Shown here piece by piece: positions 31,604-64,000 of a stretch of DNA of 64,000 nt (the stretch's first letter is position 1; each line of letters begins with the position of its first letter). The position numbers and the translations under genes were made by a program. Origin of the DNA: a virus; the IMG/VR virus record IMGVR_UViG_3300032073_000011, positions 1-64,000 of that record; one strand, given 5' to 3'. The notes under the pieces were generated by a model. The model was not told the origin of the DNA. It made no database searches and was given only the letters and a program-made list of their open reading frames with translations.

Positions 31604-32821
31604 CTAGAAAGTAAGTACTAGTTGTAAATTTACTGGTGTATTTTTTGCTTTTTCTATAGGTCTATCAGGAATAGCAACAGCTATCAATCTATTAGATGAA
31701 TCATACAGTCCAATTTCCGTTATATAAGAAGAACTAATATCAGATAAATCCCATATATTGTGTACATCACCAAATGGTGTTTGGAATTGTATCCCTGTGT
31801 TTTCTCCTCCCGCACCATAGTAAGGTGTTTCCGCTGGAGAAGCTGTTTGGTTTTCAGTAACATAAAATTCACCTGATGCTGCAACAATATCAACTACTAT
31901 TCTATATTCTTTTTCGAAAGAATAAAAACTACAATTTGCTGAACTAGCTCCAGTAAAATATATTTGAGTTGCTGCCGAAGCAAATGACATCGTATTAGCG
32001 TTAGGATTTCCTGAATGAAATGGGTAAGCTAAGGTACCACCAGTAGAAGCACCACTGTAATTAAAATTAGCTATAATACCAGGGTCTGTTATAACAGCAA
32101 ATCCTTTGTCTAAATAAGCTATACCCACTGGACGGTCTTGTACTTGTGCATAAGCTTTAGGTGAGTTTGCTGATGATACTGTTTCAGTAAATCTAAAATT
32201 GTCTACACCAGAATTAGGATACCCAGTAGGTGTACTTCCTGAAACCCAACCATTTGACCAACTTGTTATACTAGTATTTGATGCGGATAGGGATGGTCCA
32301 AGTATTTCATCACAAAATAAGAATGCCACATTTGTCGATGGTAGTCCTGGGTTACCTACTATATTACCTTCTATTTTTGGGTTACCAAAAAATTCACCTT
32401 CATCTGAATTATCTGATGATGTTGCTAATGGGTTATAATAAGAACTATATAATTCATAATTACCTTCCGACCCCGCTATATTTTTAGGTACCAATAATTT
32501 TAATGTTCTACCATCTATTAAAACTCCGTATTCACTTTTTGGTATTTCAGCAACAATTGCTTGTGCCTGAGAAAGTCCACTAAATCCTGTATTTGCCCAA
32601 GTTGATAGGAAAGCGTTTGTTGTTCCACTATTTGCTGGCATATTAAATGAAGAATATAGATTAGAAAAAGCTCTTCCGTTTGACGGGTTTCTTTGTATTA
32701 TTGTAAATGGTAAACTTGACCCACTTATATAGTTCCACCCTGTACTTGCGGAAGCATTATAAGGCACTAGAACTGCTTCTATCCTTTTTTCACTTGTTTG
32801 TATTTTTTTAAATTTTCCCAT
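31604..32821 (-). CDS. putative tail/baseplate structural protein
   Basis: C-terminal ITEIGLYD....IAVA..PIEK (tail-collar/fibre-like), S/T/G/N-rich. Confidence 0.65.
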   Translation of the reverse strand: MGKFKKIQTSEKRIEAVLVPYNASASTGWNYISGSSLPFTIIQRNPSNGRAFSNLYSSFNMPANSGTTNAFLSTWANTGFSGLSQAQAIVAEIPKSEYGVLIDGRTLKLLVPKNIAGSEGNYELYSSYYNPLATSSDNSDEGEFFGNPKIEGNIVGNPGLPSTNVAFLFCDEILGPSLSASNTSITSWSNGWVSGSTPTGYPNSGVDNFRFTETVSSANSPKAYAQVQDRPVGIAYLDKGFAVITDPGIIANFNYSGASTGGTLAYPFHSGNPNANTMSFASAATQIYFTGASSANCSFYSFEKEYRIVVDIVAASGEFYVTENQTASPAETPYYGAGGENTGIQFQTPFGDVHNIWDLSDISSSYITEIGLYDSSNRLIAVAIPDRPIEKAKNTPVNLQLVLTF

Positions 32822-32822
32822 T

Positions 32823-33254: not shown

Positions 33255-33259
33255 TTTAT

Positions 33260-35131
33260 TTAATTTATTACTTGTCCGTTTGTAACTTTAAAGAATAGAG
33301 ATTTACCCCCACTTGTTTGCCACGGATTTGAACTGTTATGCCCTCTAGGGTCTTCGGAATAAGAACTTCTATCTCCACCGGCTTCACCATAAAAACGGAA
33401 TGTAGCGTTATCATACATTCTGTAATAGTTTTGAGCTGATACGTTTTTGTACGCGAAAGATGGTGATAATGCTGCTTTATTAAATTTAAATCTCACAGTT
33501 AATTTACATGGTACAGCTCCATTTGATTCGGAAGATTGTACTTCCCAACTTATAGGTATAGATATATTGTATGATGTTAATCCACTTCCACTTAGTCCTG
33601 CAATATAACCACCACTATACGTATCAGTTTTCCAGTAACTATTATTTTGTTTAGCTATGGTAATAAATATATTATCTGCCATTTTTGCTTGTCTTGTAAA
33701 TAGTGTATAGTATGGGTCGGTTTCTGCTACTACACTCCCCGCTACTGTACTTAACCCATTATCTTTAGATGGGTATAGTGAGAAGTTTGGTCCCCCACTT
33801 TTAAGTCCTTGTTCGTTAGTGTTCCAATTAGCTGTATATTCCATACTACCCATTAATAAACCAAATGTATCGGATGGGTGAGTTGTGTAAGTTATCTGAA
33901 CCCCTTTATTATTACTACTATTAATATCTATATACTCACCCTGACTTTGAGTTAATCTTTTTAACTTAATTGGGTAGTATGTTGGTGAAAAATTAGAATT
34001 TGTCACGTTAATCACTAACCTTGTGGTTGGTATTGTTACGTTTATATTTTTATAAGCTTCACTATCAAATCCTGCTGTGGTCATACTTACTTCTCTTTCC
34101 ATATCGATAGAACTTACAAACCCTATTAGGGGTTCTATTTGAGCAGCAAGATTACTTACCCAACCATTTTGAGTTGAGTTCATATTGAATGTTGGGTATG
34201 ACTGTCCGTTTTGATTCCATGTGGACATTCCACCACAATTTAAATAACCAACATCAAATGCTGCAAATCCAATCCCGTATCGACCAGCTCCTCTTAAATA
34301 ACGTGTACCGTTTTCATCTAACCCTGGTGAAAATACTAAAGAAAAAGGAGAAGGTAATTGTAAACCTTTTAAGTTTGTACCAGTAAAATCAATACCAGTA
34401 TGTTGTCCTTTATTCATAAATGCACCCCCAGCCATGGCAAGAGCATTATAATAACTACTATCTTTTAATGGTACTAATTTTATACCACTAGTAGAGAAAT
34501 TTGTACCATCATATATCTTAACAGAATCCACATAATCAATATATTGTCCTATACCATGTTCAGATAATTCACTTAAGAAATTAAGATATTCACTATTATT
34601 ACGGATGTTTAATGTGTTTTCAAAATAATTAGTTGTAGCGGTAGATATAGTAGTTGCAGCGGAAGATAAAACATCTTTATGGTCATCTATATATTTTGAA
34701 GCTAATAACTTACATAAAACATAATAGTCAGATAAATAAACGTCTATCTCTACTTCATTTCTATAATACTTAACCAAGTTATCAGTACCTTTAACACCAA
34801 CTGCAACATATTTTTTCTTCCTAGTAAACACTTTGTTTGATGATGGTGTTTGCCACACAGCATTATTTATGGTATATCCGTTACTTATGGAATTTTTATA
34901 ATTACTATCTTGACCTGTTGCGTCAGGTATGTAACCTAATTGTGCGGAATTATTAGCTGTACTACTACTATCACCGTGTGCTTGTGTATTTCTATAGTCA
35001 ATATTACCATCTGAAATAACAAATTTATCAAATAAACTTATAAAACTCCCTGTTGATAGCATCAATTGACGCCCTTGTTCAGTTAACTGAACTGTCAATG
35101 TTGTTGCTGTTTGTGCACTTATATAACCCAT
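33260..35131 (-). CDS. putative virion structural protein (MGY..LT..GR..D..IDY family)
   Basis: N-terminal motif shared with the 35184 and 35966 genes. Confidence 0.65.
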   Translation of the reverse strand: MGYISAQTATTLTVQLTEQGRQLMLSTGSFISLFDKFVISDGNIDYRNTQAHGDSSSTANNSAQLGYIPDATGQDSNYKNSISNGYTINNAVWQTPSSNKVFTRKKKYVAVGVKGTDNLVKYYRNEVEIDVYLSDYYVLCKLLASKYIDDHKDVLSSAATTISTATTNYFENTLNIRNNSEYLNFLSELSEHGIGQYIDYVDSVKIYDGTNFSTSGIKLVPLKDSSYYNALAMAGGAFMNKGQHTGIDFTGTNLKGLQLPSPFSLVFSPGLDENGTRYLRGAGRYGIGFAAFDVGYLNCGGMSTWNQNGQSYPTFNMNSTQNGWVSNLAAQIEPLIGFVSSIDMEREVSMTTAGFDSEAYKNINVTIPTTRLVINVTNSNFSPTYYPIKLKRLTQSQGEYIDINSSNNKGVQITYTTHPSDTFGLLMGSMEYTANWNTNEQGLKSGGPNFSLYPSKDNGLSTVAGSVVAETDPYYTLFTRQAKMADNIFITIAKQNNSYWKTDTYSGGYIAGLSGSGLTSYNISIPISWEVQSSESNGAVPCKLTVRFKFNKAALSPSFAYKNVSAQNYYRMYDNATFRFYGEAGGDRSSYSEDPRGHNSSNPWQTSGGKSLFFKVTNGQVIN

Positions 35132-35183
35132 ATTATTATTCTCTTACTATATAATTATCTCGTTAAACGATTTCTTATCATTA

Positions 35184-35966
35184 TTACACACATTTTAAAC
35201 AATCACCATTACATGGGGATTCACTACCTAAATGTTTACATAATAAACAATAAACTTCTTTATTTTTACAATAACTTTCTATACTTCTATTATTATACCT
35301 TAAACACTCCATAAAAATCATTAAATCATTTTTATCTACTATACCATCACCATTAAAATCACCAATTAATTCATTACCTACTTTAGCCTTTGTACCAATT
35401 AGATTTAAAAAGACTATTAAATCTTTTATATCAACCACACCATCCCCATTAAAATCAGCACAACTTATACAATATGCTGGATAAAATTCTGTTATGTTGT
35501 GACCTACTTGCCAACAAGTTTCAAAATTACCACTTGTAGGGTTTTCTATTTCTTCTGGTTTTTCTGTTTTTTTATATTTTGCCCAGAGAGTACTTGTGTT
35601 AGTTGGTCCAACACCTAGAGTAGTATCTAGTAAAGATATTACACCTGATTTAATATTAGTTCTTGCCCCTCTAAAAATCGAGGGTAGTGTACCAAAACTT
35701 TGTTTGGTACTTTTTGGTTCCCCACCTCTAGCATCAGGTAAATCATAAAAACATGAACCTGTAAAAGCACTTAAACCTGTTTGTCCACTACAACTTCCAC
35801 TCCCCACAAATCTACGATAATCAATATCCGAATCACCCAATCCAAATTGTGTAATCGACCCCATTAAACCTTTTCCTGTACCAATAATGCTTCTACCATA
35901 ATCAGAAAGGTATAATCTAAAAGTGTTACCAGATAATGTATTATTATAAATCCCTAAATACCCCAT
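35184..35966 (-). CDS. putative virion protein with dockerin type I-like domain
   Basis: Paired Ca-binding loops ADFNGDGVVDIKDL and GDFNGDGIVDKNDL, shared N-terminal motif, Cys-rich C-terminus. Confidence 0.75.
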   Translation of the reverse strand: MGYLGIYNNTLSGNTFRLYLSDYGRSIIGTGKGLMGSITQFGLGDSDIDYRRFVGSGSCSGQTGLSAFTGSCFYDLPDARGGEPKSTKQSFGTLPSIFRGARTNIKSGVISLLDTTLGVGPTNTSTLWAKYKKTEKPEEIENPTSGNFETCWQVGHNITEFYPAYCISCADFNGDGVVDIKDLIVFLNLIGTKAKVGNELIGDFNGDGIVDKNDLMIFMECLRYNNRSIESYCKNKEVYCLLCKHLGSESPCNGDCLKCV

Positions 35967-38374
35967 TAAAAATCAATAGATATTGTAAATTGTTGAGTAC
36001 TTTGTCTTTGAATTGGTGACTGCAATTTTGCTATAGCCATCAAGTCTGGGAACCCATTCTCATTATCATATAAACCAATTTCAGTTATTCTAGGGTTAGT
36101 ATAACCATTAATAGCTGTATAATCTATCCATGTTGGGTTCGTAGAAGTTATATATTGTTGTGCTCCTAACTGTACCACATGTCTCATTTCATATATTGTT
36201 GCCATAATATCAGTTTCTAGACTACCATAAAAGAAATATTCGTCTCCAAAATTTAGCCCACCTAAATCCCCATTTTGTGGTATAGTAATATAATCGTTTA
36301 GACTATAATTTGTTGGTGTTGGGTTACAAGCTGGGTCAGTATCATTTCCGGTTAAGAAAAATGTTTGGTTTATTATATTCGTGGAAGCTATTTTAGTCCC
36401 TACTGTGTGTCCTGGGATGTCAGCTGTAATATCTTTCATGTTCCAACCATGTGGAGAAACTTTTTGTCCGTTTGGTACTATTTGCCATAATATATGTAAG
36501 GTGTCTGCCTCCCATCCGGTACCTGTTAACGCAAAATTATCTCTTAAGTAAGGGAATTCTGCACCTAAAGTGAATCCTATATCAAATGAGGTTTCACCTG
36601 GTTCCAAAGTTTCATTGACATAATAATTACAATGTAGCCCAGTAGTAACCCCGGCATTACCAACTGTATTATTTTCAAATAAATAAGTCATATATATTGT
36701 GTCACCTGGATTTTGTACCGCACCAAATGTAGCACATGCACCAGTAGGACATCCTGTACCAGCTGGAACTTTTTGTGTTCTAGGTGCTGGTAAAGTCCAA
36801 CTTCGATTAGACTTATAAGACATAGCTGCTAATAATTCTTCATCATCTATAACCACCATTTTATAATCTGGAAATACTTTTCCAACTCTATTAGGTGTTG
36901 CTCCACTACCAATATTATCATCCCATAAATGATAGTATCTTAAACCATCATCATTCATATTAATATTTTTACTAGATAACATTAAGTGTGGATTAATTGG
37001 GAAAACATCTGGATATGATTGTGGGTCAACATAAAAAGTTTGACCTAAAATTGTTTCATTACCAGCTCCAGTTCCAGTACCAGACCCCTGGGAACTCTTT
37101 TTATGCCACATTAACCAAGGTAAATGTAATTTAAAGTTTTTAGCTTCACCAATAGTAGTCATGGTGGTATCTTTCATAGCAAATTTTTCACCATAAAAAT
37201 CTGTGGTAGAATTATTTGTGTAATGAATAAATCCAGCACATTTCTGGTCTTCTGGTAAAACTACTCTTGTATTGTAAAAAGAATCAAAGTAAAAAGTACC
37301 ACCAATAACTGAAGGGTGGTAACTATCAGTAACTTGATTGGTGAAAGATTGTCCGTCATTACTTTCTAAACCAAAGTATTCTTTGGACCCACAATAACCA
37401 CTAGAACCATAATTATCTACCCCTACAAAAACTCCATTAGTTGGTGATGCTACTCCCGCTACTTGGTGTGTCCAGTTTATATTCATATTCCATATCTTAA
37501 CATCTGTATTGGATGTATCACAACAATTATTAAATGAAAGTGTGTCGTCACACCAACAATTAATTGTACTAGCGGTATTATATATACTAGTTGTGGTCAT
37601 AGGATTTGCGGATGATGCTGGATAAACTCTAACTCGAGTACAACCAGATTTCATTTGGGTTGTCACCCCACTAAAGTTTGGTATATTTCTATCTATAGTT
37701 AACCATAGTGAAGCATTAGTTTGTGCGGAATTACTATTACCCGCTGTTACTTGGTAAAATAAAGTGGTGGAGGCAGCACTATAGTTAAGTTGGGAACATC
37801 CTGCACCAGAAAACTCATAAGTGACAGAAATTAAATCCCCTATTACTGGTGAATATTGTTGTAAAGAACACATAGTTGTTGCTGAGACTAAATGTACTTC
37901 ATTTGACCCTGTCATTGATGACACACATAATTGCCAGTTTGATGATAGAGTATATGAACCTCCAGTATTAGCGGTAAAATATGTATATGAACCTTGTCCT
38001 GCTGCGGTATTATCAGTTGTTCCAGTAAAAAAACCTCTTAGAGTTGCTGTGTTATACACATCGTTTTGTTGGTGTTGTGGTATAGTAGGACCAAAAGTAT
38101 CTCCACTACTTAAACCACCTACTAGTGGGTATTTTACATGACCTTTATTTTTTTCAGGCATAGGATTTAGGTTCTGTGCATTGTGTTCTGCCTGTAATAT
38201 AAATAAACCTGGACTTGCTGCGGGTTGTTGTGTGTAACAATCATAGTTAACTTCACTATCACCTATTTGGAAAAGTCCTATATTTAATTTTCCTTCTGAT
38301 AGTTTTCTTCTACCGGCATCGGTAAGACGAGCGACTATCGCTCCTTGTGTACTGTTTTTAATTATATAACTCAT
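35966..38374 (-). CDS. putative tail/baseplate structural protein
   Basis: N-terminal LTDAGRRKLSEG..F.IGDSEVNY, C-terminal ITEIGLYD...AIAKL..PI.R, TATTTAT upstream. Confidence 0.65.
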   Translation of the reverse strand: MSYIIKNSTQGAIVARLTDAGRRKLSEGKLNIGLFQIGDSEVNYDCYTQQPAASPGLFILQAEHNAQNLNPMPEKNKGHVKYPLVGGLSSGDTFGPTIPQHQQNDVYNTATLRGFFTGTTDNTAAGQGSYTYFTANTGGSYTLSSNWQLCVSSMTGSNEVHLVSATTMCSLQQYSPVIGDLISVTYEFSGAGCSQLNYSAASTTLFYQVTAGNSNSAQTNASLWLTIDRNIPNFSGVTTQMKSGCTRVRVYPASSANPMTTTSIYNTASTINCWCDDTLSFNNCCDTSNTDVKIWNMNINWTHQVAGVASPTNGVFVGVDNYGSSGYCGSKEYFGLESNDGQSFTNQVTDSYHPSVIGGTFYFDSFYNTRVVLPEDQKCAGFIHYTNNSTTDFYGEKFAMKDTTMTTIGEAKNFKLHLPWLMWHKKSSQGSGTGTGAGNETILGQTFYVDPQSYPDVFPINPHLMLSSKNINMNDDGLRYYHLWDDNIGSGATPNRVGKVFPDYKMVVIDDEELLAAMSYKSNRSWTLPAPRTQKVPAGTGCPTGACATFGAVQNPGDTIYMTYLFENNTVGNAGVTTGLHCNYYVNETLEPGETSFDIGFTLGAEFPYLRDNFALTGTGWEADTLHILWQIVPNGQKVSPHGWNMKDITADIPGHTVGTKIASTNIINQTFFLTGNDTDPACNPTPTNYSLNDYITIPQNGDLGGLNFGDEYFFYGSLETDIMATIYEMRHVVQLGAQQYITSTNPTWIDYTAINGYTNPRITEIGLYDNENGFPDLMAIAKLQSPIQRQSTQQFTISIDF

Positions 38375-38416: not shown

Positions 38417-41400
38417 TTAATATCCACCTTCAAATCCTTCAGCTCCACCTGGTCCCGCTAAATTAACTGGATTTATACCTGTTGGGGAATAAAATACATC
38501 TCTTGTTATTTCAAATGGAACTATGTCCGTTTGACTTGTAGCATAAACACTTTCACCATTTAATAAAGGGTATTGTCTTGTAATGGATACCCTGTATTTA
38601 TAATTTCCTGGTGCTGGTGGTAACAATTTAAAAGAACAATAAATAGCTCCTATTCTATCAGCATCTATTGTTTTACTTAGTTCTTGTACTATATTACCAT
38701 CTTCATTAAATAATCTAACTCTAACAACATCTATTAATGTTTTATCTTTTAAATAGTTTATTGGTATTTGTGGTTCTTTGTTCATACTTATCCCAGCTAT
38801 CATATAAATTGTCTTATAAAATAAAGCGAAGGTGTCACCTGATTGGTAAGTATCTAAAGAAGATAATAATTGTATTCTAGTGTCACTGACTTTGGTGTAT
38901 CCACCAGCTCCTTCTCCTTGGGTTACACCATTTATTGCTAGTTGTACTCCACCGAATGACTGTTTTTCTAAATTAATATAGTAGTAACCATTTTCTTCAA
39001 ATATCATCTCAGTATCTGTGGTGGTAACAGTTTCTGGCATTGTAAAAAATTGTGCCCATGAACCACCTATAGCATCATACATAAATTTTAATTGGTCACC
39101 ATTTTGTACTGTTTCAGGAAAAAATCTTACCGCCCTATTATGTAAAGTTAATTCATAGTCTCCGGTAGCTAATATAGTATTATAATTAGACACATCCTTA
39201 CCCATAGAATCAGTCATAGGAACATAAGTTGTGGTACCTGACCTTCCTTCAGAAACTACAATACCGTTTACTGTGACTATTGGTATACTAGGATTAGCAC
39301 TTCTAATTTGATGCGTGTATGTTGCACTACTGAAATCTGGGTGGGTTGCTGCAGGCATATTAGTGACTACTGTTGTTTCTACCCTTAATGATGGTGTGGT
39401 AAAGGGAATTCTAAAACTATCTAATGTTAAAACAGGGATAGGTGGGTCTTTTACCAAAGCCATATAAAAATCCTGACTTGTAGAAACTAGTTCTTGTGGT
39501 GGATAAAAAGCTGTATCAATCCACACATCATTAGGTGATTTTTTATCTTTAAATAAATAACTTGGTCTTACAATATATTCCCAACTGCTTCCCGTACAGA
39601 AACCAGACCAAGGAATAAAAGTACTAGCACTTATTATAGTGCTTTGACTACTTTCATCATAATAAGTTGGTAAGGTGTCAAATATTGCTTCATAAACTGG
39701 TGATGTTGCAATTCTATCTTCTTCTGTTATGTATGGATATATCCTAAATTTAGGGTACATATTACCGAATAACATGTCCGTATTGTTACCCCCATAATAT
39801 ACTTTTATTTCTCCACCACCTCCTTGACTTGCATTATAAACTGATAATGCTGGTTTATTACCTATCTGTGCACTTAATTTAACATTTGGTTTACTTAAAC
39901 CAACAATACTTAGACTAGGGGATGGCATTGTTTGTAATGTCACGTTAACTTTTGGGTTAACTTTTGGTACGTTTGGTTCCGTAGAAGTGTAACTACTTGT
40001 ATTATTAGTTTGTATTATATTAGTGGTTGTCCCTGTGGTAGCGGTAATAGTGACGGTGTTTGAAGGTCCTTGACTATTTCCACAATCTGGTGGGAGTATT
40101 TCTTGTTGTGATGGGTTACCAGTAAAACTAACGTGATAAAAACTTAACCCGGGTTGTGATGCTTGACCGTAACCAATTCTTTTAGAGCCTAAAAATTTAC
40201 ATAAATCATATCTTTGTAACCAATCATATTCATCATAAGCAGAAAAAGAGTTTCCAGACCATGTGGTTCTATCTAAAAGATTAAAATTAATGTCGTACCT
40301 TGGATTATATCCGTTTGATTGTCCTATCGCTCTGGTTGCACTAGAACCGGTACCCATTGTTTCAGTAAATTGTATATGAAAATGTTCTCCTGTAGTCCCT
40401 GAACGATTTATTTTAACTCTTACCGCTCCCATGTTTGCCCAAGCCCCTGTTCCCGCACTAAAAGGCGTAAGATAATCATCAAAATTAGCTATGGTTACTT
40501 TACCCGCGTTAGGGTTTACACTAGTACATGCACCTTGGAAACAATCTCTAAACTGATAACCTTCTCTTTTAAAACCGAAACCACTACTACCCGCATTGTG
40601 ACCTATACTAATTTTTCCTGATGTACCATTAGCTTGTAAATACAAACTATATGTAAACCCAGATGGTCCATATTTTGCGTCATCATCTCTAAATGCAGCC
40701 AAAAATATATATAGACTATCATTATCTAATGTAGCATTAAATGTTGTTTGCCATGAATAGTTGTTATAGGAACATAAACTTAACATACCACCAGTACTAG
40801 AATTATTTGCCGTAGAACTTGCATAAAATTTACCATCAGTACCACCATCCGGATATATACCACTAAATGGAGCTACATTTCCTGAAGATGGGTCTACAGT
40901 AACATCCACAGCTGACACATCGGCTATAGAAAATCCTGAAGTAGCTCCTGTTAGATTAGAACTTCTGGGGTTACCTGGTATCCCATAGTTTTGACGTGGG
41001 TCATATGTTATCCAACTAAGTACAGCTCCATAACTTGGCCATAAATAAACAAATTTATTTATTATACTATTGTAATAAAACTTACCTATATTACCCACAC
41101 TTCTAGCTATGTCTGGCCCCACATTATTATTACCTTCTTCTGTTGTTAAAGCACTAACACCTAAGTACCAGTTTTGACCTAAATCTGTTTTTCTAGTTAA
41201 AGTGTCACCAGTATAAAACCACACATAAGGATTATCTGTGTCTATAGTCCCGTCTGGCAAAATACCAGTTTCATAGTATATTTGAGTTCCTCCTGTTGCT
41301 GGACCCCAACCAGGAGTACCAGGAAGGAAACTAAGGTGAAATGGTGCGTTAGGAAGAAAATTTTCCCATGTATTACCAATAACATTAGGTAATAACCACC

Positions 41401-41974
41401 CATAAGATGTACCATTATCATTAAAATTATAGGCGGTACATCCACTTTGTGATGGTCTGGTATTAAAATCTATTATTTTTTCTTCCATTACTGTAACAGT
41501 ATATAAACCATTTTCTATACCACTAAAAGCGTGACTTGTATCACCTGTGTTCCCATAATAAATGTCTACTAATTTATTATTTTTTCTTAACTCATATGTA
41601 TATGTGGCTGTTGTGGTAGTAGAGTCTGATACTGTTATCTCTCCTTTTTTGTTTGGGTCTAATACACAGTCATCGTTAGTTAAACTGGCATTTATACTAG
41701 GTACTGTAAAAGCACTAAGTGTTATTGTTGTGGTTGCTGTCGCTCCCGTATAATCTGTTATAGTAGCCACATAATCATCAGCACATAAATTACTAATATC
41801 AAAAGTATCTGCTGTATATAAAGTATTAGTACCTGACCAAGTTACTAGGTAAGGTGCACTATTAGTAGAAGCAGATATATTTGCCCCTATAATACTCCCA
41901 TTACAAGACCCACTTAATGTGTTGGTTATCTTATACCCGTTTAATTTCATATTACCTACATACGATATTGACAT
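38417..41974 (-). CDS. large putative virion protein with N-terminal SprB-like repeats
   Basis: CNGSI...APY...WS...ISNLCA.DY...ITD..G, then a second copy KGEITV...YTY....F.GI..G.YTVTV. Confidence 0.65.
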   Translation of the reverse strand: MSISYVGNMKLNGYKITNTLSGSCNGSIIGANISASTNSAPYLVTWSGTNTLYTADTFDISNLCADDYVATITDYTGATATTTITLSAFTVPSINASLTNDDCVLDPNKKGEITVSDSTTTTATYTYELRKNNKLVDIYYGNTGDTSHAFSGIENGLYTVTVMEEKIIDFNTRPSQSGCTAYNFNDNGTSYGWLLPNVIGNTWENFLPNAPFHLSFLPGTPGWGPATGGTQIYYETGILPDGTIDTDNPYVWFYTGDTLTRKTDLGQNWYLGVSALTTEEGNNNVGPDIARSVGNIGKFYYNSIINKFVYLWPSYGAVLSWITYDPRQNYGIPGNPRSSNLTGATSGFSIADVSAVDVTVDPSSGNVAPFSGIYPDGGTDGKFYASSTANNSSTGGMLSLCSYNNYSWQTTFNATLDNDSLYIFLAAFRDDDAKYGPSGFTYSLYLQANGTSGKISIGHNAGSSGFGFKREGYQFRDCFQGACTSVNPNAGKVTIANFDDYLTPFSAGTGAWANMGAVRVKINRSGTTGEHFHIQFTETMGTGSSATRAIGQSNGYNPRYDINFNLLDRTTWSGNSFSAYDEYDWLQRYDLCKFLGSKRIGYGQASQPGLSFYHVSFTGNPSQQEILPPDCGNSQGPSNTVTITATTGTTTNIIQTNNTSSYTSTEPNVPKVNPKVNVTLQTMPSPSLSIVGLSKPNVKLSAQIGNKPALSVYNASQGGGGEIKVYYGGNNTDMLFGNMYPKFRIYPYITEEDRIATSPVYEAIFDTLPTYYDESSQSTIISASTFIPWSGFCTGSSWEYIVRPSYLFKDKKSPNDVWIDTAFYPPQELVSTSQDFYMALVKDPPIPVLTLDSFRIPFTTPSLRVETTVVTNMPAATHPDFSSATYTHQIRSANPSIPIVTVNGIVVSEGRSGTTTYVPMTDSMGKDVSNYNTILATGDYELTLHNRAVRFFPETVQNGDQLKFMYDAIGGSWAQFFTMPETVTTTDTEMIFEENGYYYINLEKQSFGGVQLAINGVTQGEGAGGYTKVSDTRIQLLSSLDTYQSGDTFALFYKTIYMIAGISMNKEPQIPINYLKDKTLIDVVRVRLFNEDGNIVQELSKTIDADRIGAIYCSFKLLPPAPGNYKYRVSITRQYPLLNGESVYATSQTDIVPFEITRDVFYSPTGINPVNLAGPGGAEGFEGGY

Positions 41975-56900: not shown

Positions 56901-59679
56901 AAGTAGAACAAGTTGTACAAGGGTCACACATAGGGTCACATACCCATCCACAAGGGGTGTTACCTATACCTAACCATTGTGGGTTAGCGGCATAACAAGA
57001 TGCTTCATCGGTATACCCAGTACCCACATATACCGGTTTACAACCTTCTTCACAATTATAAATCCACCTAGTATAATCACAACAACCCGTGTAAGTTCCG
57101 GCTGAATTCGTAAATCCACCATTACAATCACTTATATCGTAAGGGTCAAAAAATAATTCAAAATTAAATGCCGCGTAGTCTACAAAATTTAAAAATGGTG
57201 CTGGTGTAGGTGGTAAAGTACTCATTACTGGTAATACACTATCAACATAAAATGAGGTTCCGTTTAAAAGGTCCTCATCACATGAAAGTAATTGACAACA
57301 ATTCCCTCCAGCTGCTGGTGAACTAGTAGTACATGAAAAAGCTGGGGGATTACACCAATTATTACAGTCAATTTCACTATCAAAAACTGGTCCTTGATTA
57401 GGGTCTAACCCACTTGGGTCATTATATAAAGGGTGTGCTGAAGTAATTTCTATACAATTACCACAAGAATATTGGTCTTCACAAACATACCTATCTTCAC
57501 AACAATTACCTAAGTAAAAAGTATCCATACAATCTTCAAAAGCTGTAAATCCGACACTTGTACAAGGACCTGTATTTGTTGACCCCGTACCTGGTACTAA
57601 TTGACATGAAAGACTAGATGCTGTTAAAGCTGATACTGGTGGACATACCCAACTAGAACATCCAATATAATCCCAATATTGATTATTGGTTAGGCCGGAT
57701 GGTGGTGGTAACGTACCACCTGATAAAGCTCTATAACAATTACCCCATTGACCTAAAGTAAATTGTCCTGTTGAGTACACATTACCATTACTGTATACTC
57801 CCGCTGGACCCACAGGTGATATGGTAGGATACGCATTCCATGTGTTAGTTGGGTCATAACAAGGTATAGCTGTAAAGTCTGGGCATGATTCACACTCTGG
57901 AGTACAAGCCTCCCAAATATGTTCTGTTGGTTGTCCGTTATTCCACCAAACTCCTTGTACTAAATCAGTTGGTTTAATTCCAGCCCAAGGGTCTATAGTT
58001 CCACCACTCTGATTAATATCTGTTACTGCCATATAACAACAACACTCCCCCCAAGTAGAGTCAAATACTATATCTCCTTTAACATAGTTTGTCGTTGCCG
58101 ACCATTCACCCCAATTAGTGTTAATCATTGGGTCGAAACTTATAGGTTCTGGTAGTGTGGTTATTCTATCAATATATTCGTCTTTTGTTTCACAGTAAGT
58201 ACAATCTTCTATTGCACATTTTACACAATCAAAAGCACCGAAAGCAAAAGCATCCATACCACAACTTGTAGCTTCATATAAAGTAACACCATTACTAAAG
58301 TCATAAAAAGTTATTGGTGTATTTGTACCAATACTAATAGTATAAGCAGTATATTGTGTGTTTTCTACTGTAATTCTACCCATAACCCCTTGTTCTATAA
58401 GGTTGGTTATTGGATTTATTACTTCACCCATAATCGGTACATCAACATTTATTTGGTATCCCGGTGGTAAATTACCAGTTTGTAGTGATGTGTATGTTTG
58501 AAACGCACCTAGTAAACTTTGTGTGTTACCTGTAACCTCAAAACAATTACTATTATTACCACCACCAAATATAGGTGACATACCACTATATTGTAATATA
58601 TCGGTACCAGAATCTAAAGGTGAAAAAGGATAGGCACCAAAATATGTATTAGTACCTGTAGGTCCAGTAGGTCCAACTACTGGAGCGTTACTAGGAGCTA
58701 TACCTGTATTAAGAACTGAATTGTAAGGTTGAGCTTGTAATGTATTATAAGGCATGAATGGAACTGTTATAACTTGAGAAACTGAAGTTGGTCCCCATTC
58801 ATTTTGATGAGTTATGGTAATCCTTCTTTGTCCTACACCAGCATAAGTATGTGGTGTTGGGTTTGTAAGATTTGGAAATTGTAGGGTTTCACAACAAGGG
58901 TCACCAAATGAATTTGTACAAGGTGGTGTCACACAATCACAAGGACAGTCACCCCACTCTATAGTATATGGTGAATTTTGGTAGGTTTTGTAATAACCAA
59001 AATCCGTAGTATTATATATTTGTATTTGGTTACCCATCGCGGTGGTTGCGGTAACAATAAAATTAGAAAAAATATCTTTTTGACCTAGATTTCCATCCCA
59101 AATATCATAATGCCCTATATCATTAAAATCTTGTTCTAGGAAAATAGGTATTTGATGTAAGTCATTAAATACTGGTGGTGGACAAAAACAAGATACTGTG
59201 TTTGGTGTTAAGTGTGCACTAGTTTGGGTGTTTAGTGGTTGTGATAAAGTAGAATTTGTTAAAGAAAAAATACTTATTAAATCATCATAACTTTCACCAG
59301 TAAATGTCATTACCCCAGATTGGTATAAATTTAACCCAGCAAATATAACATAAGGATGGGATTCTACATCCAAACAAAATGGTTGATTCATAGTTGGTGC
59401 ATTACCGTATGGTGGTGGTGCACCCATTACTGGCATCGTAGTTGTATCATTTAATAGGATACATGGGTTTGTTGACGAACATCCAGTTAGTTCGGTAGGA
59501 AAATTATTCATGTCACCCTGTAAAGCGTTCTGTACTTGACTAAATGTAGAGTTGTACATTGTTAATCCTGAACAGTTAGGGCTTGTATTGATAGGGTAGA
59601 AATTAGTTCCACCGGTACAAGGTACTGTAAAATAAACACTAGGGTTACTTCTTTTTATTCTATATTTGTATACTTCCAT
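50923..59679 (-). CDS. giant Cys/Pro/Gly-rich repeat protein (putative tail fibre/adhesin) with PKD-like and CBM5/12-like modules
   Basis: 2918-aa uninterrupted ORF. PKD-like WGD...HTY, repeated W....Y..GD.V modules, about 20 Cys modules. Confidence 0.8.
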   Translation of the reverse strand: MEVYKYRIKRSNPSVYFTVPCTGGTNFYPINTSPNCSGLTMYNSTFSQVQNALQGDMNNFPTELTGCSSTNPCILLNDTTTMPVMGAPPPYGNAPTMNQPFCLDVESHPYVIFAGLNLYQSGVMTFTGESYDDLISIFSLTNSTLSQPLNTQTSAHLTPNTVSCFCPPPVFNDLHQIPIFLEQDFNDIGHYDIWDGNLGQKDIFSNFIVTATTAMGNQIQIYNTTDFGYYKTYQNSPYTIEWGDCPCDCVTPPCTNSFGDPCCETLQFPNLTNPTPHTYAGVGQRRITITHQNEWGPTSVSQVITVPFMPYNTLQAQPYNSVLNTGIAPSNAPVVGPTGPTGTNTYFGAYPFSPLDSGTDILQYSGMSPIFGGGNNSNCFEVTGNTQSLLGAFQTYTSLQTGNLPPGYQINVDVPIMGEVINPITNLIEQGVMGRITVENTQYTAYTISIGTNTPITFYDFSNGVTLYEATSCGMDAFAFGAFDCVKCAIEDCTYCETKDEYIDRITTLPEPISFDPMINTNWGEWSATTNYVKGDIVFDSTWGECCCYMAVTDINQSGGTIDPWAGIKPTDLVQGVWWNNGQPTEHIWEACTPECESCPDFTAIPCYDPTNTWNAYPTISPVGPAGVYSNGNVYSTGQFTLGQWGNCYRALSGGTLPPPSGLTNNQYWDYIGCSSWVCPPVSALTASSLSCQLVPGTGSTNTGPCTSVGFTAFEDCMDTFYLGNCCEDRYVCEDQYSCGNCIEITSAHPLYNDPSGLDPNQGPVFDSEIDCNNWCNPPAFSCTTSSPAAGGNCCQLLSCDEDLLNGTSFYVDSVLPVMSTLPPTPAPFLNFVDYAAFNFELFFDPYDISDCNGGFTNSAGTYTGCCDYTRWIYNCEEGCKPVYVGTGYTDEASCYAANPQWLGIGNTPCGWVCDPMCDPCTTCSTLNCGYAYDLQGHIDCEMNCSCSTVCYVCDCTNPTPCTIYQDPITNAASCPYWPPNPFGSPPTFPDLPQCQTGCTCPGGFDCFVYDDTNPPAQIGQQVGGCTYYASEYVMIQLGVTWSPGSPTDPFGNPTGYTSFEECCNATECCRAVCEDDPIQAGLNGWSAYTTTGPALQGGGGGQLPCYWISQTNLDLQVGPTNVNCCSPAYVNSMNGLTGIVQCFDDNPGLPYCDMIDCVNALCPDPDPLNTTGMTCCAPVEETCNCACEDWLTVNGIPITSAFTWSGPWSNTNTYNMFETVSYSDGNTPECCFMCMCPPDITGTGYDCDSSPPDDGPYTVNGPPNCWQTCERLPAYDPATPVPTIGDPCGPCDGPSSAATMWCTPSGCTSGCGSLPSSTASGVGGIFDPPPGVNVSIWATQNNCYTGGTCSTPLIGMGIDQCTADCYCADPGPPAGLEPVDVSNCVVMQDYLNDIYSPGTGNLGIHFNGYSPFPFTWPPVQPGIVFQMTGVLTTWPYGSLDLCQSQIDPGFAFCCTGNTSIMTWECDSSCNCPTVAGNPCVGGVGCYPVMGSGGTFTSLSGCQEWCTWECNSQGAQTCQFIPMSLASVTYPSATACELANTNCLCQNLSEEWWCDWAGADAGLYDTPGSQPCQPSSYFVGQGSAYQSQAIGQAAGGPSDPNNNYFFAVTLGNVPTGMGFPTQAQCEERCRFCCDCAPPGTGVCDLCGDPTVVACAWGDMTCSGGTASCGTGLPSSTSPGDCAQQQLTVTGDRTCREPQTEYCCHAVDGCLSYIGTPPMGSDGNPCVTFFGTNAAACTDECNFVCGDCVPPAGDCHCQFVNGPVSPSCSPYPFTNMLDCETYVQSLTLFGADGSCCRCYHCTTNSPITYQMYDTGTMSWVLGSTPVNMSTGALPWVSGQVYNIGDVVTFSFDNTSCCYVNVWDTSQDWTVPPYFYYQAYINDLNTSNPVWPGGGTLSLQWIPCDPDCVPGVMQQTYDCIPGTITDSCSNRNLVVPPTATLNQYDLLEVIGAPAGVPYLQTTDVMTIKFPYYGPGPIFSNPCTYAAGTPNAAPLYQVNGPIVIHPNVGVMIGIPGSYNTWSSMITSLAGAGVTSPSGTILSLSSSWDDVCLGINAIWGSYLRDKCMDIQMTPCRCTQTPCVCVQVNGPTGAFNSLSGCQTTLNYDPCCGSWKCDPKICDCTFIPNDITGFSSQTECYNSNNCCTIRYDEYECRKIPIIGPVGANNFKCECVVVPAGMGSYTGPNALFDCENDPTTCCSGRTMPDMWRCTKDCSCVIDPTGPYSTLHDCQTAINNNCCYTGVTKDWECVDFGPKAGGCKCVQTASGVWPTQADCEAQVNDCCYTGHTGRYDCVPGNNGLCKCVVNVSGFGTYATLSDCQNGIPVSNCCENQSTDCSTECPPSSFISPTYVHHNGTYSIGFTQTLPLASSNIAGLWLSGTIYTPFDIVKDPYDDCCYVLVCDNCHFTGSDIMSYSPSQIYQNHLLGKYYNGTQDPTPVTPEINIQNRGPIWWPCDPKCSTTPPDIGYDCVNCPGSCNCIQNNTGTAQYQGPNALSLCIANCKQGCEDCAQTLSGYLTGPIDYEGIWYSTFNPAYVENDCVTDPDDGCCYCCVPYPFGPDDPHDDDDPHSKIKRNDGTISPAGPGGSGPGGSGPGGSGPSPTKVICKSGYQPSLNVGVNIGGGAMWMDCKVTTDGSPCDNSTGAVDCNNCDTYMSTNWGATLPLQWKTPAYQHFYQNQCVVDPNDGCCYCCMMSPNVDPNDFGSGWVDHDDPVRGPGFSNSSPCAVYDTNQDGNWEYYGAGVIVPFTDGNIYGWVSCTPSGSFPCSGVSGSIYYDCLHRPTIFDPSNHECVPVPGGPYTSLQACQNSPCPPPVTPCNECCGKLKKDGTWIYQTLPTTYNPCDCEFWLGIGWVTKPTSDCCVPPTWACPIGQVWSQSDCSCVPIVIGPGGPIEDDWVTEEPCIQTESCPEGYQWDWDRCQCMPT
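51898..51945. repeat. perfect 15-bp tandem repeat x3 (GGACCTGAGCCTCCT), encoding GPGGS
   Basis: Read directly. Confidence 0.95.
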
Positions 59680-59682: not shown

Positions 59683-60633
59683 TTAAGGGTTTACGTATTC
59701 ATAAAATCTTATTGGTACAGCGTTAGGTACTTGTAGGGTACCAGGAACTGCATCTGCGGGTGTACCACCTGGTAAACCAGTTCCAGCAGGTCCACCACCA
59801 CCTAAAGCCATGATTGCTTCATTAAATTGTGTAACAACATATCTAAATTTAGGGTCTATTGTAGATGCGTTACTGGGGTTTATAAATAATTTAACTTTAT
59901 AATAAAACCATTCTGGATAACTTAACACCTCCCCATTGGTTATTTCACTAAGGGTTGGTGGCTTGTTTATCATATTAGTTACTTTTCCATTTTTTGCGTT
60001 AAAAAATTTACATGACATATAAAACTCATCAATTTCTGTAAGTTCTCTATCTTTTAACCATTGTATATAATAATTTTCACTTCTGCCGTGTAGTGGTCCT
60101 AAGACACAAACAGGCACATACACACCATACTTAGGGTTAGTAATGTTATTAGCTATTTGTGAATAGTACTCTGTGGGGTCCTCTAGTGGTAGTATCTCTG
60201 TCATTTCTTTCATACAATTATTTAAAGGCATAACGTTGGTGAACATTATTTTTTGTTCCTTTCTTAGGGGAGAATCGTAGAAATCAAATTTAAAAAAACT
60301 TCTTGTAAAAGCTTTTTTAGGTTTATGTAAATCTTTATCTTGGAAACCTAGAACATTAAAATTATCAACATACTGTAAAGTGTTAGGGTCCCAAAATTCA
60401 AAAGCGTAAGATATTGTGTTTGAGCCTCCACTAAATGTATTATTAACAGTGTTTCTATAAGCGTACCTGGTAGTTTCATAATCTTGTATTACATTTATAT
60501 TATCTTGTAATTCAACCTCTTCCCACGTCCTAACTAATTGTTCATTACCTATTTCGTCAAATGTCTGCCCTATGGGTATAGTTATAGACTTATCTTTCGT
60601 TGAAGCTTTTATATTTACTCTATTGACAGCCAT
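59683..60633 (-). CDS. putative virion structural protein
   Basis: 316-aa ORF with SFFKFDFYDSP, FYMSCKFFNAKNG, FYEYVNP. Confidence 0.65.
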   Translation of the reverse strand: MAVNRVNIKASTKDKSITIPIGQTFDEIGNEQLVRTWEEVELQDNINVIQDYETTRYAYRNTVNNTFSGGSNTISYAFEFWDPNTLQYVDNFNVLGFQDKDLHKPKKAFTRSFFKFDFYDSPLRKEQKIMFTNVMPLNNCMKEMTEILPLEDPTEYYSQIANNITNPKYGVYVPVCVLGPLHGRSENYYIQWLKDRELTEIDEFYMSCKFFNAKNGKVTNMINKPPTLSEITNGEVLSYPEWFYYKVKLFINPSNASTIDPKFRYVVTQFNEAIMALGGGGPAGTGLPGGTPADAVPGTLQVPNAVPIRFYEYVNP

Positions 60634-62410
60634 CAGTGTATTCGGTTAATATAGTTATTGTTGCTGAGGTTAGTGGGATTAATGCTGGCCCCACCGCCTC
60701 TATTTTAAATTCTAAATTATGGTAAGGGTAGTGAGCATCATTTAAATAGGGGTAACTAACACCATTATCCCCATCTTCATAAGCTTCTACCGGTAAAATT
60801 TCTCTCCACCTAAATGTTTCCTCTGATAAAGAATAAACAGCATACTGGGGTGATGTAAACAGACTATCATTATAACTTACATAATTAGAGAATTTTTTTA
60901 CAGGTATCTTGTGGTGTGGATGGTATTTAAAGATAGAATCTACAAAATCATATCCTGGTGTACCACCAACTTTATACATCGCATCTCTATTAAATTTTAA
61001 GGAATGTCCTATTTCTGAAATTACTCTTTCTTTTAACTCAAAAGGGTTATATTCAGCAAAAGCACCTCTAAGTGTACTTCCACTTAATGGTAATGGATTT
61101 ACCCCTAAATTACCGTTTTGAGTTACATTTATGGGGTGAATTGTGTTATCCACAAAAGGGTCTACCACCCCATTTTTTTTAAAGTTCCACCCCCAACCAT
61201 ATCCAGCTGGACTAGAATTACCACCAGGATTCCAATCCCAAACTAAATTTCTATTTGTAGTAAAAATTGTTAAATAAAATTCTGTTAAAGGCCTATTAAA
61301 TTGGTCGTAATAATCATCACTATTAATATTATAATTACAATTCCATAAAAATGAATCGTATTCTTGGATTAAAACCGACTTTTGTTTATAGTTTGGTGTT
61401 CTTTTTGCTGGAAATATTCTTCCTCTTTTATTGTATATCCCTCTTTCAAAACCTGTTTTATCTAAAGTTAAATCATTAGGGTTTGTTATTAATTTATGTA
61501 TTTGACAATAGTATTCAGATTTTGTCTCTAGCATATTTTCTGGGTTAGTGACTCTTTTTAAAGTACCTACTGGTTCTGTTGGTATTGAGGTAGCGTCTAA
61601 CCCTAATGTGGTAATATTCATAACATAATCTTCAGAATTTTCTAATCCATTACCCAAATAATCTACTTTAAATATAGTTTGAGGCCCACTTACCGGTGCA
61701 AATACAGTAGTAATTGCTACATCAACTAGTAGATTAGCGTTACCAAAAGTAGTTGCCCCAGATTGTATTTCTATATATTCTCCTGGTGATACACCATGTC
61801 TTACCGGTGTTATTATTTGTAACACTTCTTTACCATCAGTATTGGTCACTCTGGGGGTAAAAGGGATACCATCTCCAGCTACAAACTGCATACCAGAAGG
61901 TGTGGTGTAGTCTGTATAGTATTCCATTGTTTGTTCTGGGTCTGCATCATGTACATAAGAAATATATCGCACCCAATTATCTTGGTGTGCTAATATTGGT
62001 TCCCAACCTGCTTGACTAGGGTCAATACCATATCTTTTAGGTGGTATCATGGTAAAAGTACTAGATGGTGGTAAACCGGAACAACTAGTAGGTGGTACTC
62101 CACCTAAAAGATGGGGGCACCCTATATAATCTGGAATAAAATACATTGAGTCCATAAAATAAGCATCTTGTGTGCTACCACTAATAATATTGTTGTAAAG
62201 TATATCTATTTTCCCATATAACCTATATTGGGTTGAGTATTCTCTTTCAAAGTCAAATTGGTCTCTTAGGTCTAAAACTAGGTTTCTGTCACCTTCATGT
62301 ATTTGTTTTTGTGTGGATTCTAAAAACGGTTGTAATTGCAATTCTCTGTTAGGTGAACCAGCAAATTTAGATTCTCCTCTTACAATCCTTATGTTTTTTT
62401 CGTTACTCAT
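60620..62410 (-). CDS. putative virion structural protein
   Basis: 596-aa ORF in the structural module. Confidence 0.65.
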   Translation of the reverse strand: MSNEKNIRIVRGESKFAGSPNRELQLQPFLESTQKQIHEGDRNLVLDLRDQFDFEREYSTQYRLYGKIDILYNNIISGSTQDAYFMDSMYFIPDYIGCPHLLGGVPPTSCSGLPPSSTFTMIPPKRYGIDPSQAGWEPILAHQDNWVRYISYVHDADPEQTMEYYTDYTTPSGMQFVAGDGIPFTPRVTNTDGKEVLQIITPVRHGVSPGEYIEIQSGATTFGNANLLVDVAITTVFAPVSGPQTIFKVDYLGNGLENSEDYVMNITTLGLDATSIPTEPVGTLKRVTNPENMLETKSEYYCQIHKLITNPNDLTLDKTGFERGIYNKRGRIFPAKRTPNYKQKSVLIQEYDSFLWNCNYNINSDDYYDQFNRPLTEFYLTIFTTNRNLVWDWNPGGNSSPAGYGWGWNFKKNGVVDPFVDNTIHPINVTQNGNLGVNPLPLSGSTLRGAFAEYNPFELKERVISEIGHSLKFNRDAMYKVGGTPGYDFVDSIFKYHPHHKIPVKKFSNYVSYNDSLFTSPQYAVYSLSEETFRWREILPVEAYEDGDNGVSYPYLNDAHYPYHNLEFKIEAVGPALIPLTSATITILTEYTDGCQ

Positions 62411-64000
62411 TATATTACTGTATCTGATAATTCTTCATCTATATATTTCCTAACAAAAGTATTGAATGCTGTACCTCCAGGTCTTAAACCAAAATAATAA
62501 AATAATGGTTGTGAAAACACATAAGAATCACTACCTGGAATTGTACCATTAGTTACTGGGTAGTTGTTATTCGCAAATGAAAATGGTGGATTACCCATAT
62601 AGTGTTGGAAATTACCACTACTTAGATATTGTGTACCCCCGGAAAGACCTGGTACGGCATTTGTGGGGTGTATTGTTGAACCTTCTGCATCAACAGAAGA
62701 AATTGCTGGTAAAATTGACATTGCTGGTCCAGGTACACCGAACGCATATCTATATTCTCCTAGAGTACCTAACCAGTCATTCCAAACAGTACCGTACCCA
62801 CCAATTGGGACACCCCCAAGTGTACCACTCGCATTATGTAAATGCCATGGATAAAATGGTACAGTCTGACTAGATGCTGACAACTCCATAGTGACACAAT
62901 CTATTAAATCCTGACCATCCATAATAACTGATGTAGAACCTGTAAATAATAATGGTTCCCACAAAAGATTATGTCTAAAGTTATTTGAATTATTTATATC
63001 GTTTACATTAAGAGCATTGGGTACGTAAGTTCCTCCCACAAAATTTGGTGATGGGTAAGTTAGTCCACTTGGTGGTAGTGAGTCTGTTGGTGATGTGGAA
63101 AATCCTGGACCGTTACCAACTGGGAATTGACACTCACAAGCTGTATTACCATTATTTGCCTCATATCCTGCAACACCTAACATACAATTTTGCATAAGTG
63201 CTTGTGCTACATCACCACCAATTTCATATTCAGGACGAGGAAAGAACGTAGACATAGATGCCTTTGGATTTTGCATCTTAAGATTATAGGTATCAGAAAC
63301 TAGTTCTGTTATGTCTTGGAATGTTGTACTACCTATCTGGTCAGTCACAGAACATTCGTTAGCGTATTTAGGGTCTAAACATATTTGTTGTATACATTGG
63401 TTTCTAGACCCCATATCTACCATTGTTGTTGGAAAAAGAATATGTCTGTCTTGGTCACCCTTAGCGTGGTTACTACCACTACTACCCGCAAAAGCCCACC
63501 AAGGATTATATACACCATCAGTATCACCAATAAAACTTCCTTCTAGTGGTTGGATACCGTTAACTTTAAATGGTGTGGACCTATAGTAAAAAGTATGTTC
63601 TGTTGGGTGTAGGTAGGTTAATTTTTTACACCACTGGGAATTGGTGACGTAGGTATCATTGGCGGTATCATATTCTACCTTAGCTCTAAATTGGAATTGG
63701 TATAAGAATCCACTTACCCAACTATTTTCCCAAAAATAATTCATAATACCATTACATAATGCCTGTGATACTTTTTCTCTTCTGGTCCATTCTAATAAAA
63801 CTCTAAGATTATAGTTCTCAGCGACACAGTCTATATTAAAACATATTATTTTTACATAACAACCACCACCTGCTATACCATCCGTCGGGTCATTACTTGT
63901 ACTTGGGTCACCCGAAAAAGAAGAATTAAAACCATAATAGTCTGGGCAACATATTCTTGTCTCATCTGTTTGTGCACAACAATCATGTGACCACTTGCCA
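62410..64000 (-). CDS. putative large virion protein, partial (starts beyond right edge)
   Basis: The frame stays open from 63744 to the window edge (GKWSHDCCAQTDETRICCPDY...ALCNGIMNYFW). Ends FYYFGLRPGGTAF..F..KY. Confidence 0.75.
   Translation of the reverse strand, partial: GKWSHDCCAQTDETRICCPDYYGFNSSFSGDPSTSNDPTDGIAGGGCYVKIICFNIDCVAENYNLRVLLEWTRREKVSQALCNGIMNYFWENSWVSGFLYQFQFRAKVEYDTANDTYVTNSQWCKKLTYLHPTEHTFYYRSTPFKVNGIQPLEGSFIGDTDGVYNPWWAFAGSSGSNHAKGDQDRHILFPTTMVDMGSRNQCIQQICLDPKYANECSVTDQIGSTTFQDITELVSDTYNLKMQNPKASMSTFFPRPEYEIGGDVAQALMQNCMLGVAGYEANNGNTACECQFPVGNGPGFSTSPTDSLPPSGLTYPSPNFVGGTYVPNALNVNDINNSNNFRHNLLWEPLLFTGSTSVIMDGQDLIDCVTMELSASSQTVPFYPWHLHNASGTLGGVPIGGYGTVWNDWLGTLGEYRYAFGVPGPAMSILPAISSVDAEGSTIHPTNAVPGLSGGTQYLSSGNFQHYMGNPPFSFANNNYPVTNGTIPGSDSYVFSQPLFYYFGLRPGGTAFNTFVRKYIDEELSDTVI

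Follow-up and report, generated by a model that had tools for sequence, protein, structure and literature searches.

Why should one short peptide recur many times over in the otherwise unrelated, putative tail-surface proteins of a single phage? The question is raised by the first 64 kb (positions 1–64,000; the window) of IMG/VR virus record IMGVR_UViG_3300032073_000011, a single contig of 102,192 bp (G000; CheckV completeness ~32%) whose window has a GC content of ~30% and carries nearly all of its genes on the minus strand. An initial annotation had singled out the pentapeptide [FYLVIC][ST][GA]x[ST] in the large open reading frames (ORFs) of the right half of the window (31604–64000) and proposed it as a glycosylation sequon; the ORFs listed and all of the example pentapeptides are present as described. 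Scored against whole-protein shuffles, right-half ORFs contain 66 motifs where 14.1 are expected (z 13.9) and left-half ORFs contain 1 where 3.1 are expected, in agreement with the predicted division between structural and non-structural proteins. This enrichment is real and strong, and it continues beyond the window in the ORF that runs to 66075, in an ORF of 366 amino acids (aa) at 83685 and in the tail sheath (94541–97990). Across the whole contig, the outer set of proteins carries 80 sites (18.3 expected) and all other proteins carry 3 (9.8 expected).

The motif was chosen once the sequences had been inspected, and S, T and G are more frequent in the outer proteins than in the enzymes, two points that would favour a statistical or compositional artefact (a post-hoc motif in low-complexity, S/T/G-rich sequence) or a signal at the DNA level; we find such an origin barely credible. 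Shuffling within 20-aa or 10-aa windows, which retains S/T/G-rich patches, gives right-half expectations of 15.0 (z 13.0) and 16.7 (z 11.7), respectively. When the same residue classes are placed in 36 different orders, the outliers are the order given above (66) and the overlapping [ST][GA]x[ST]-hydrophobic (41), with all others near expectation. An unbiased scan of 48,000 gapped residue triplets in the outer proteins ranks SA.T first, SG.T third and TG.T fifth, the other top triplets deriving from Cys repeats of a giant protein described below; nothing similar to this signal emerges from the same scan of the remaining genome. Codons at motif positions match background synonymous usage and draw on both Ser codon families, which places the signal at the peptide level and rules out a DNA-level cause. 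The carrier proteins have no BLAST similarity to one another and no internal repeats (E ≤ 1; only short chance matches), and profile–profile comparison of the two families tested reveals no similarity. Local composition, repeats and shared homology are thereby ruled out by the window shuffles, BLAST and profile–profile comparison, and the earlier claim of peptide-level selection across unrelated proteins stands. The signal is further reproduced in independent families and at >150 independent metagenomic loci.

Where on the particle would these sites lie? The ORFs from 66075 down to 31604 come straight after baseplate J in the direction of transcription, and the region just after baseplate J is the usual site of baseplate periphery and fibre genes. 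Searches of the block against Pfam and PHROGs gave no family match except for a dockerin/EF-hand-like motif in one ORF, and its products are therefore predicted to be tail-surface proteins from gene position. The carriers, all encoded on the minus strand, comprise a 405-aa orphan baseplate/fibre-module protein (31604–32821; 5 sites, 0.85 expected); a 260-aa fibre-module protein (35184–35966; 3 sites, 0.35 expected) with a dockerin-type I/EF-hand-like Ca-binding loop pair at residues 171–218 (Pfam Dockerin_1, E 1.2e-6); orphan fibre-module proteins of 802 aa (35966–38374; 5 sites, 1.3 expected), 1185 aa (38417–41974; 11 sites, 2.1 expected, and 13 against 2.6 in the orthologue from G001, a 74%-identical relative), 1307 aa (41988–45911; 7 sites, 1.4 expected) and 1063 aa (45917–49108; 9 sites, 1.3 expected); a 2918-aa Cys-rich giant tail protein (50923–59679; 19 sites, 3.9 expected); and a 1221-aa protein directly downstream of baseplate J, the C-terminal part of which falls in the window (62410–64000, on to 66075; 4 sites, 1.1 expected). 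Two overlapping distal baseplate-region proteins of 316 and 596 aa (59683–62410, minus strand) are weakly enriched (1 against 0.16 and 2 against 0.44). Block ORFs at 33260, 32823, 49114 and 50289 are not enriched. The first of these, a 623-aa S/T/G-rich protein (33260–35131, minus strand), provides an internal negative control (1 against 1.1, and 1 against 0.9 in its G001 orthologue); the last, a 210-aa orphan between the giant protein and the next fibre gene (50289–50921, minus strand), has zero sites and no Pfam or NCBIfam match.

Outside the window, the 1149-aa sheath (94541–97990 of the contig) has its core in residues ~850–1146 only, and 9 of its 10 sites fall within residues 130–432, outside that conserved core. 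Tail tube (0 sites), hub, baseplate J and a tape-measure-like protein are all at expectation. The same partition holds in a complete relative (G005; 353 kb, terminal repeats), where 159 sites genome-wide (73 expected) are concentrated in ~20 ORFs, namely the sheath, the fibre module and two further blocks close to the sheath; its T4-like major capsid protein has 2 sites (0.8 expected) and its portal has 0. Enrichment in sheath outer domains and fibres, set against unenriched capsid, portal and tube, therefore marks a feature of the tail surface and not of the whole virion, and the original attribution to virion proteins at large holds for this tail-surface subset.

The trait extends across a lineage. 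G001 shows the same pattern ORF by ORF, with 45 of 63 sites kept between orthologues of the two genomes, 18 lost and 13 gained; positions 1, 2, 3 and 5 are ~87% class-conserved, and x is 57% identical against a background of 71%. The giant protein of G001 (2991 aa; G001:76947-85922) can be aligned with that of the window over ~355 aa at 29% identity, yet it carries 19 sites (4.2 expected). Alignment of this Cys-rich protein (2918 and 2991 aa) all but fails between two genomes that share 60–80% identity in their other tail proteins; it is hypervariable and probably binds the receptor. Among 120 sheath homologues we count 1203 sites (340 expected) in 102 alignment columns. The family of the 405-aa protein has >160 relatives and retains 3–3.7x enrichment to 30% identity; 120 of its members give 2.7–3.7x down to 28% identity, with sites in 43 columns, only two of them widely conserved. 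At 77 IMG/VR loci (26–94% identity, GC 24–40%), fibre-module ORFs are enriched 3–7x and other ORFs ~1x, and 208 proteins dereplicated below 60% identity hold 900 sites against 220 expected. On these comparisons, motif density persists where sequence identity does not. Outgroups behave differently: T4 baseplate, fibre, sheath, Hoc and capsid proteins have 7 sites against 12.7 expected (0.55x), the cyanomyovirus S-RIM2 has 27 against 17.8 (1.5x), and LR756508 (484 kb; the nearest deposited relative, sheath 30% identical) has 77 against 77.3 genome-wide, with no outlier ORF. The three controls therefore identify a trait of one clade, not one generic to tails, marine phages or huge phages.

Dissecting the motif position by position reveals a narrow specificity. 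Enrichment is 4.1–4.4x overall and rises to ~7x in the strongest variant, hydrophobic-S-[G/A]-x-T. Preferred residues at position 1 are F, W, L, Y, I, M, V and C (hydrophobic residues 3–6x), and D, E, K, R, G and H are not enriched (Asp 0.7–0.9x). Ser exceeds Thr at position 2 (5.2–5.5x against 3.1–3.2x), position 3 admits only G (4.1–4.3x) or A (3.7–4.8x), the 18 other residues giving 0.2–1.8x, and Thr exceeds Ser at position 5 (5.7x against 2.2–2.8x). Most residues are tolerated at x (3–5x), with Pro (9 against 10) and Lys (8 against 7) not enriched. Altering the spacing by one residue drops the signal to 1.5–2.5x, and the flanks contain little information besides low charge, with no extended profile, although a hydrophobic residue is favoured directly after the motif too. 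Single-residue specificity at four positions within featureless flanks is typical of enzyme sequons and unlike domain signatures. Known sequons, tested on the 208 dereplicated fibre-module proteins, do not account for the signal: the Bacteroidota sequon D-(S/T)-(A/I/L/V/M/T) occurs 484 times against 493.5 expected (0.98x), in line with the distinction drawn in the initial annotation, and N-x-(S/T) with x not Pro 1826 times against 1873 (0.97x); these two, S-G-x-G and the reversed motif are all flat (0.97–1.13x). The EOGT (EGF-type O-GlcNAc) pattern aromatic-(S/T)-G-x-x-C, which in EGF-like repeats lies between the fifth and sixth Cys, is found 8 times (3.5 expected) and looks similar at a few sites of the Cys-rich giant protein; it cannot explain the bulk of sites.

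Could the motif be a structural or assembly element particular to this lineage, with no enzyme to read it? It would then form a small turn at strand/loop junctions or subunit interfaces, its Ser/Thr side chains hydrogen-bonding to the backbone, its small residue permitting tight packing and its hydrophobic residue acting as an anchor. We examined 14 sites in two AlphaFold2 (AF2) models, of the sheath (predicted local distance difference test score (pLDDT) 59 overall, 70–90 over residues ~105–660) and of the 405-aa protein (pLDDT 79.7, predicted template modelling score 0.75), where sites of the latter occupy turns, 3-10 turns and loops. Together the models place 4 sites in a loop just before a strand, 4 in open loop, 3 at a strand end, 1 mid-strand and 1 at a helix end, and 3 in short 3-10/helical turns, one of these counted also as a strand end. 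The many predicted loop-to-strand junctions and 3-10 turns suit a structural element, as do the position-conserved sites between G000 and G001 and the few near-invariant sites across families, the favoured hydrophobic residue that follows the motif, and local clustering of sites, at ~20–40-residue spacing in places. Their contexts are nonetheless heterogeneous (loop, strand, strand end, helix end and 3-10 turn), and this mixture disfavours a single local fold. Consistent placement at helix N termini, as for a capping box or hydrophobic staple, was not found (3 of 14 sites helical or 3-10), and BLAST, spacing (irregular overall) and profile–profile comparison detected no tandem homologous units or regular period of a β-solenoid or fibre repeat rung. 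A generic fold would also be expected in other β-rich tail proteins, yet neither T4 and LR756508 nor the unenriched S/T-rich proteins of the clade itself exceed expectation, and extended flank profile, internal repeats and shared homology are all lacking. We consider a structural origin unlikely, if the most serious of the alternatives. The modelled contexts fit accessible turns, and most of the 14 sites fall in turns or loops, where the initial annotation had anticipated exposed loops, alongside those in strand, at strand ends and at a helix end. A fold search with the 405-aa model (Foldseek PDB, VIA-align) returned no clear fold, with small phage baseplate/fibre domains as the best matches (Z 4.5), and the ESM Atlas places this protein in unnamed viral clusters only.

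If the motif is read by an enzyme, which enzyme might that be? The initial annotation pointed to two minus-strand neighbours in the window, a GT2-family glycosyltransferase (GT) with Glycos_transf_2 and Glyco_transf_7C domains (24636–25676) and a DegT/PseC-like sugar aminotransferase (25670–26857). Both are restricted to a sub-clade and syntenic only in closer relatives. A search of 20 large clade contigs found an orthologue of the GT2 in just one, and none was found in the 3 genomes that are at least 90% complete, all of which are still motif-enriched; DegT occurs in 1 of the 5 genomes checked. Given this lack of conservation across the clade, we reject the pair as the reader; the GT2 is possibly a glycan tailoring enzyme. 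All 5 large genomes nevertheless have GT2 clusters of some kind, and 2 of 5 have GT11. The GT2 orthologue at G002:C1:16067-17104, in a 94%-related contig, contains an in-frame TAG, and a GT11 copy at G006:C1:78600-79388 is interrupted by five in-frame stops; the variable GTs seem to be subject to decay or turnover.

By synteny, a ~19-kb sugar-nucleotide/GT island (G001:1-20000) would lie just past the end of the window's contig. In G001 it encodes a 4,6-dehydratase/epimerase, a UDP-Glc/GDP-Man dehydrogenase, methyltransferases, a second DegT, three GT11, a GT17-like protein and a Glyco_tranf_2_5 (PF13712) GT, together with fusions of an epimerase to a sugar C-methyltransferase and of an RmlD-like reductase to a GT2. 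So rich a glycan toolkit is unusual in a phage; GT11 is a fucosyltransferase family. Comparison of five genomes reveals a syntenic conserved core that adjoins the variable island genes and consists of the PF13712 GT (in most relatives a ~546-aa fusion with a GT4-type PF13439 domain), a 412-aa protein that, on a language-model lead alone, may resemble viral family-1 GTs, a ~200-aa protein of unknown function and a 268-aa PhoH-like ATPase unrelated to the glycosylation question. Of 16 clade records, 15 encode the PF13712 GT, among them 3 of 3 complete genomes, and the single miss is a 53%-complete fragment; LR756508, T4, S-RIM2, 14 cellular control genomes and 50,697 deposited phages all lack it. 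Co-occurrence of the enrichment with GT genes, which the initial annotation had put forward as a check, holds for this conserved enzyme. At 80 IMG/VR loci sampled by the PF13712 GT, ORFs oriented divergently from the island carry 538 sites against 102 (5.3x), and the island's own enzymes 109 against 161 expected (0.68x); a motif-rich ORF is found in 38 of the 46 full-length loci. One motif-rich island neighbour in G001 has a Peptidase_S74 tail-fibre chaperone domain. Sequence searches of the PDB with the window GT2, the 366-aa ORF, the conserved GT and its 412-aa neighbour returned nothing informative.

The sharp Ser/Thr grammar, unrelated carriers, restriction to the tail surface, density kept across divergence and a GT core private to the clade together argue for a clade-encoded reader. 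We propose that hydrophobic-[S>T]-[G/A]-x(not P/K)-[T>S] would be a short linear recognition site, or sequon, on exposed tail surfaces (sheath outer domains, distal baseplate and fibres), which a phage-encoded enzyme would read in the host cytoplasm, modifying one of its hydroxyl residues. The likeliest enzyme would be the conserved GT core, made up of the PF13712 GT-A enzyme, in most cases joined to a GT4-type domain, and the neighbouring GT1-like protein. This core may attach a core sugar as the priming step. Variable GTs and sugar-nucleotide enzymes, the window GT2 and DegT included, would then elaborate strain-specific glycans that coat the tail. That the motif is a sequon for a clade-encoded enzyme, with protein O-glycosylation by the conserved GT core as the best candidate, is the account we favour, with confidence just short of even. 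The more specific proposal of a new cytoplasmic O-glycosylation system in abundant marine jumbo phages, in which the PF13712/GT4 core reads hydrophobic-S-[G/A]-x-T on folded tail-surface proteins and variable GT islands extend the glycan into a diversifiable, O-antigen-like coat, is advanced a shade more tentatively. Narrow specificity, the exclusions at x, lineage restriction and the many GTs all fit a lineage-encoded reader, as the initial annotation had supposed; glycosylation itself is plausible and unproven.

The same sharpness and the restriction to one lineage and to the surface call for a reader that need not be a GT. Another Ser/Thr modification (phosphorylation, nucleotidylation or acylation) could be responsible, or a clade-specific fibre-assembly chaperone or adaptor that docks on the pentapeptide. 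The clade has a DnaJ of its own, and the small orphan ORF 50289–50921 lies within the fibre operon. We regard a reader of this kind as improbable: neither a kinase nor any other enzyme that modifies Ser/Thr was identified, clients of DnaK/DnaJ tend to be hydrophobic and basic but the motif flanks are charge-depleted, and, among conserved enzyme classes, GTs alone were found both to co-occur with the motif-rich genes and to share synteny with them.

Several observations weigh against O-glycosylation by the conserved GT core. The putative link to glycosylation consists of clade-level co-occurrence and synteny; this co-occurrence spans the clade and so counts as effectively one evolutionary event, with a few outgroups besides. 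The GTs might have another substrate altogether, be it DNA, host envelope glycans or something else; 2 of 3 complete genomes carry a gene of the thymidylate synthase family, making DNA modification possible, although no clade-wide hydroxymethylase was found. Around 70% of sites are positionally conserved between the 74%-identical genomes, as a structural role also predicts, and this contig, at 32% completeness, does not include the conserved GT.

The remaining gene content places the phage in context. Enzymes of the window's left half comprise glutamine synthetase, lysozyme, a PLP (pyridoxal phosphate) enzyme, a DruA-like protein, DnaJ, sigma-70, an SMC/Rad50-like ATPase, an M23 peptidase, the GT2 and DegT, a phosphoesterase, a PD-(D/E)XK nuclease and a primase; the glutamine synthetase (GlnA, 1464–2510), the full-length DnaJ (J domain, zinc finger and C-terminal domain, 11152–12156) and the sigma-70 factor (19697–20494) are all on the minus strand. 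The homologue of the Druantia defence protein DruA (9659–10834, minus strand; PF14236, E 7e-25) is 95% identical in G001, a defence-system component aboard a lytic-looking jumbo phage. Beyond the window lie a baseplate-J/gp6-like wedge protein (66189–68027), ribonucleotide reductase, a DnaB-like helicase, a UvsX-like recombinase, the baseplate hub and the tail tube, as well as a 2097-aa protein with a C-terminal endolysin/peptidase-like domain by PHROGs (G000:77079-83372, minus strand), probably a tape-measure/tail-lysin, in which the motif is not enriched. Megablast of the window found no match among deposited phages, and relatives of the sheath come from marine metagenomes, on contigs of up to ~420 kb. 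Moraphages are large phages of aquatic habitats that are predicted to infect Flavobacteriia and that share four core GT orthogroups with no known target; their traits include T4-like tail genes, glutamine synthetase, a DnaJ-type chaperone, a sigma factor, several core GTs and relatives of >200 kb (PMC12619734). The contig shares GlnA, DnaJ, sigma-70, sheath, gp6-like and tube proteins with them, and contigs of its relatives reach 380 kb; from gene content alone we infer that the phage belongs with a moraphage-like lineage. A search with the phage DnaJ for a Flavobacteriia host genome returned only unrelated metagenome-assembled genomes.

How would such a system compare with those already known? 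No publication describing this motif was found in our literature search. In mycobacteriophages (Freeman et al. 2023, as summarised in PMC12619734), virion glycans reportedly sit on C-terminal tails of capsid and tail-tube subunits and are added by phage-encoded GTs, with no discrete sequon described. The two are alike in that cytoplasmic GTs encoded by the phage would glycosylate surface proteins of the assembled virion, perhaps shielding it; they differ in that capsid and tube are not enriched here, sites are internal, in sheath outer domains and fibres, and follow a defined pentapeptide, and modification is inferred. Our clade also resembles the giant viruses in its large islands of sugar-nucleotide enzymes (dehydratase, aminotransferase and methyltransferases) with several GTs, and in its putative acceptor sites, which are atypical and virus-specific. 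Those viruses self-encode their glycosylation (the chlorovirus capsid protein, mimivirus fibrils), are viruses of eukaryotes and carry N-linked or fibril glycans; to our knowledge, none of their systems uses this O-type pentapeptide. Bacteroidota O-glycosylation, in the predicted host phylum, likewise uses a three-to-five-residue Ser/Thr sequon with a small or aliphatic residue after the acceptor, but is periplasmic and host-encoded and has Asp at position 1. Cytoplasmic bacterial O-GTs, such as the flagellin GTs (for example, the GT2 enzyme GmaR) and the BAHT heptosyltransferases that modify autotransporter β-helices, act on one substrate family. They are comparable as soluble GTs that modify many Ser/Thr sites in a local hydrophobic context on exported or surface fibre-like proteins before assembly; they lack this consensus, whereas ~20 unrelated proteins carry the motif here, and homology of the PF13712 GT to them is not demonstrated. 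The grammar recalls N-x-S/T in its acceptor, its permissive x with Pro disallowed and its hydroxyl residue, more often Thr than Ser, although the acceptor would be Ser/Thr and not Asn, and a G/A and a hydrophobic position are additional.

Even if the motif proves to be structural, a lineage-wide five-residue code common to ~20 unrelated tail proteins is unusual. Were it a glycosylation sequon, no O-linked sequon would have been defined before it in any bacteriophage, and a tail (sheath plus fibres) rather than a capsid would for the first time be seen to carry a systematic glycan coat, in marine Flavobacteriia-type jumbo phages of a clade with global distribution. The multiple 'core' GTs of moraphages, the function of which is open (PMC12619734), would gain a target, and glyco-engineering a new sequon/GT pair. 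A tail coated in this way would bear on host recognition, on resistance to proteases and grazing, and on the stickiness of phage particles in the ocean.

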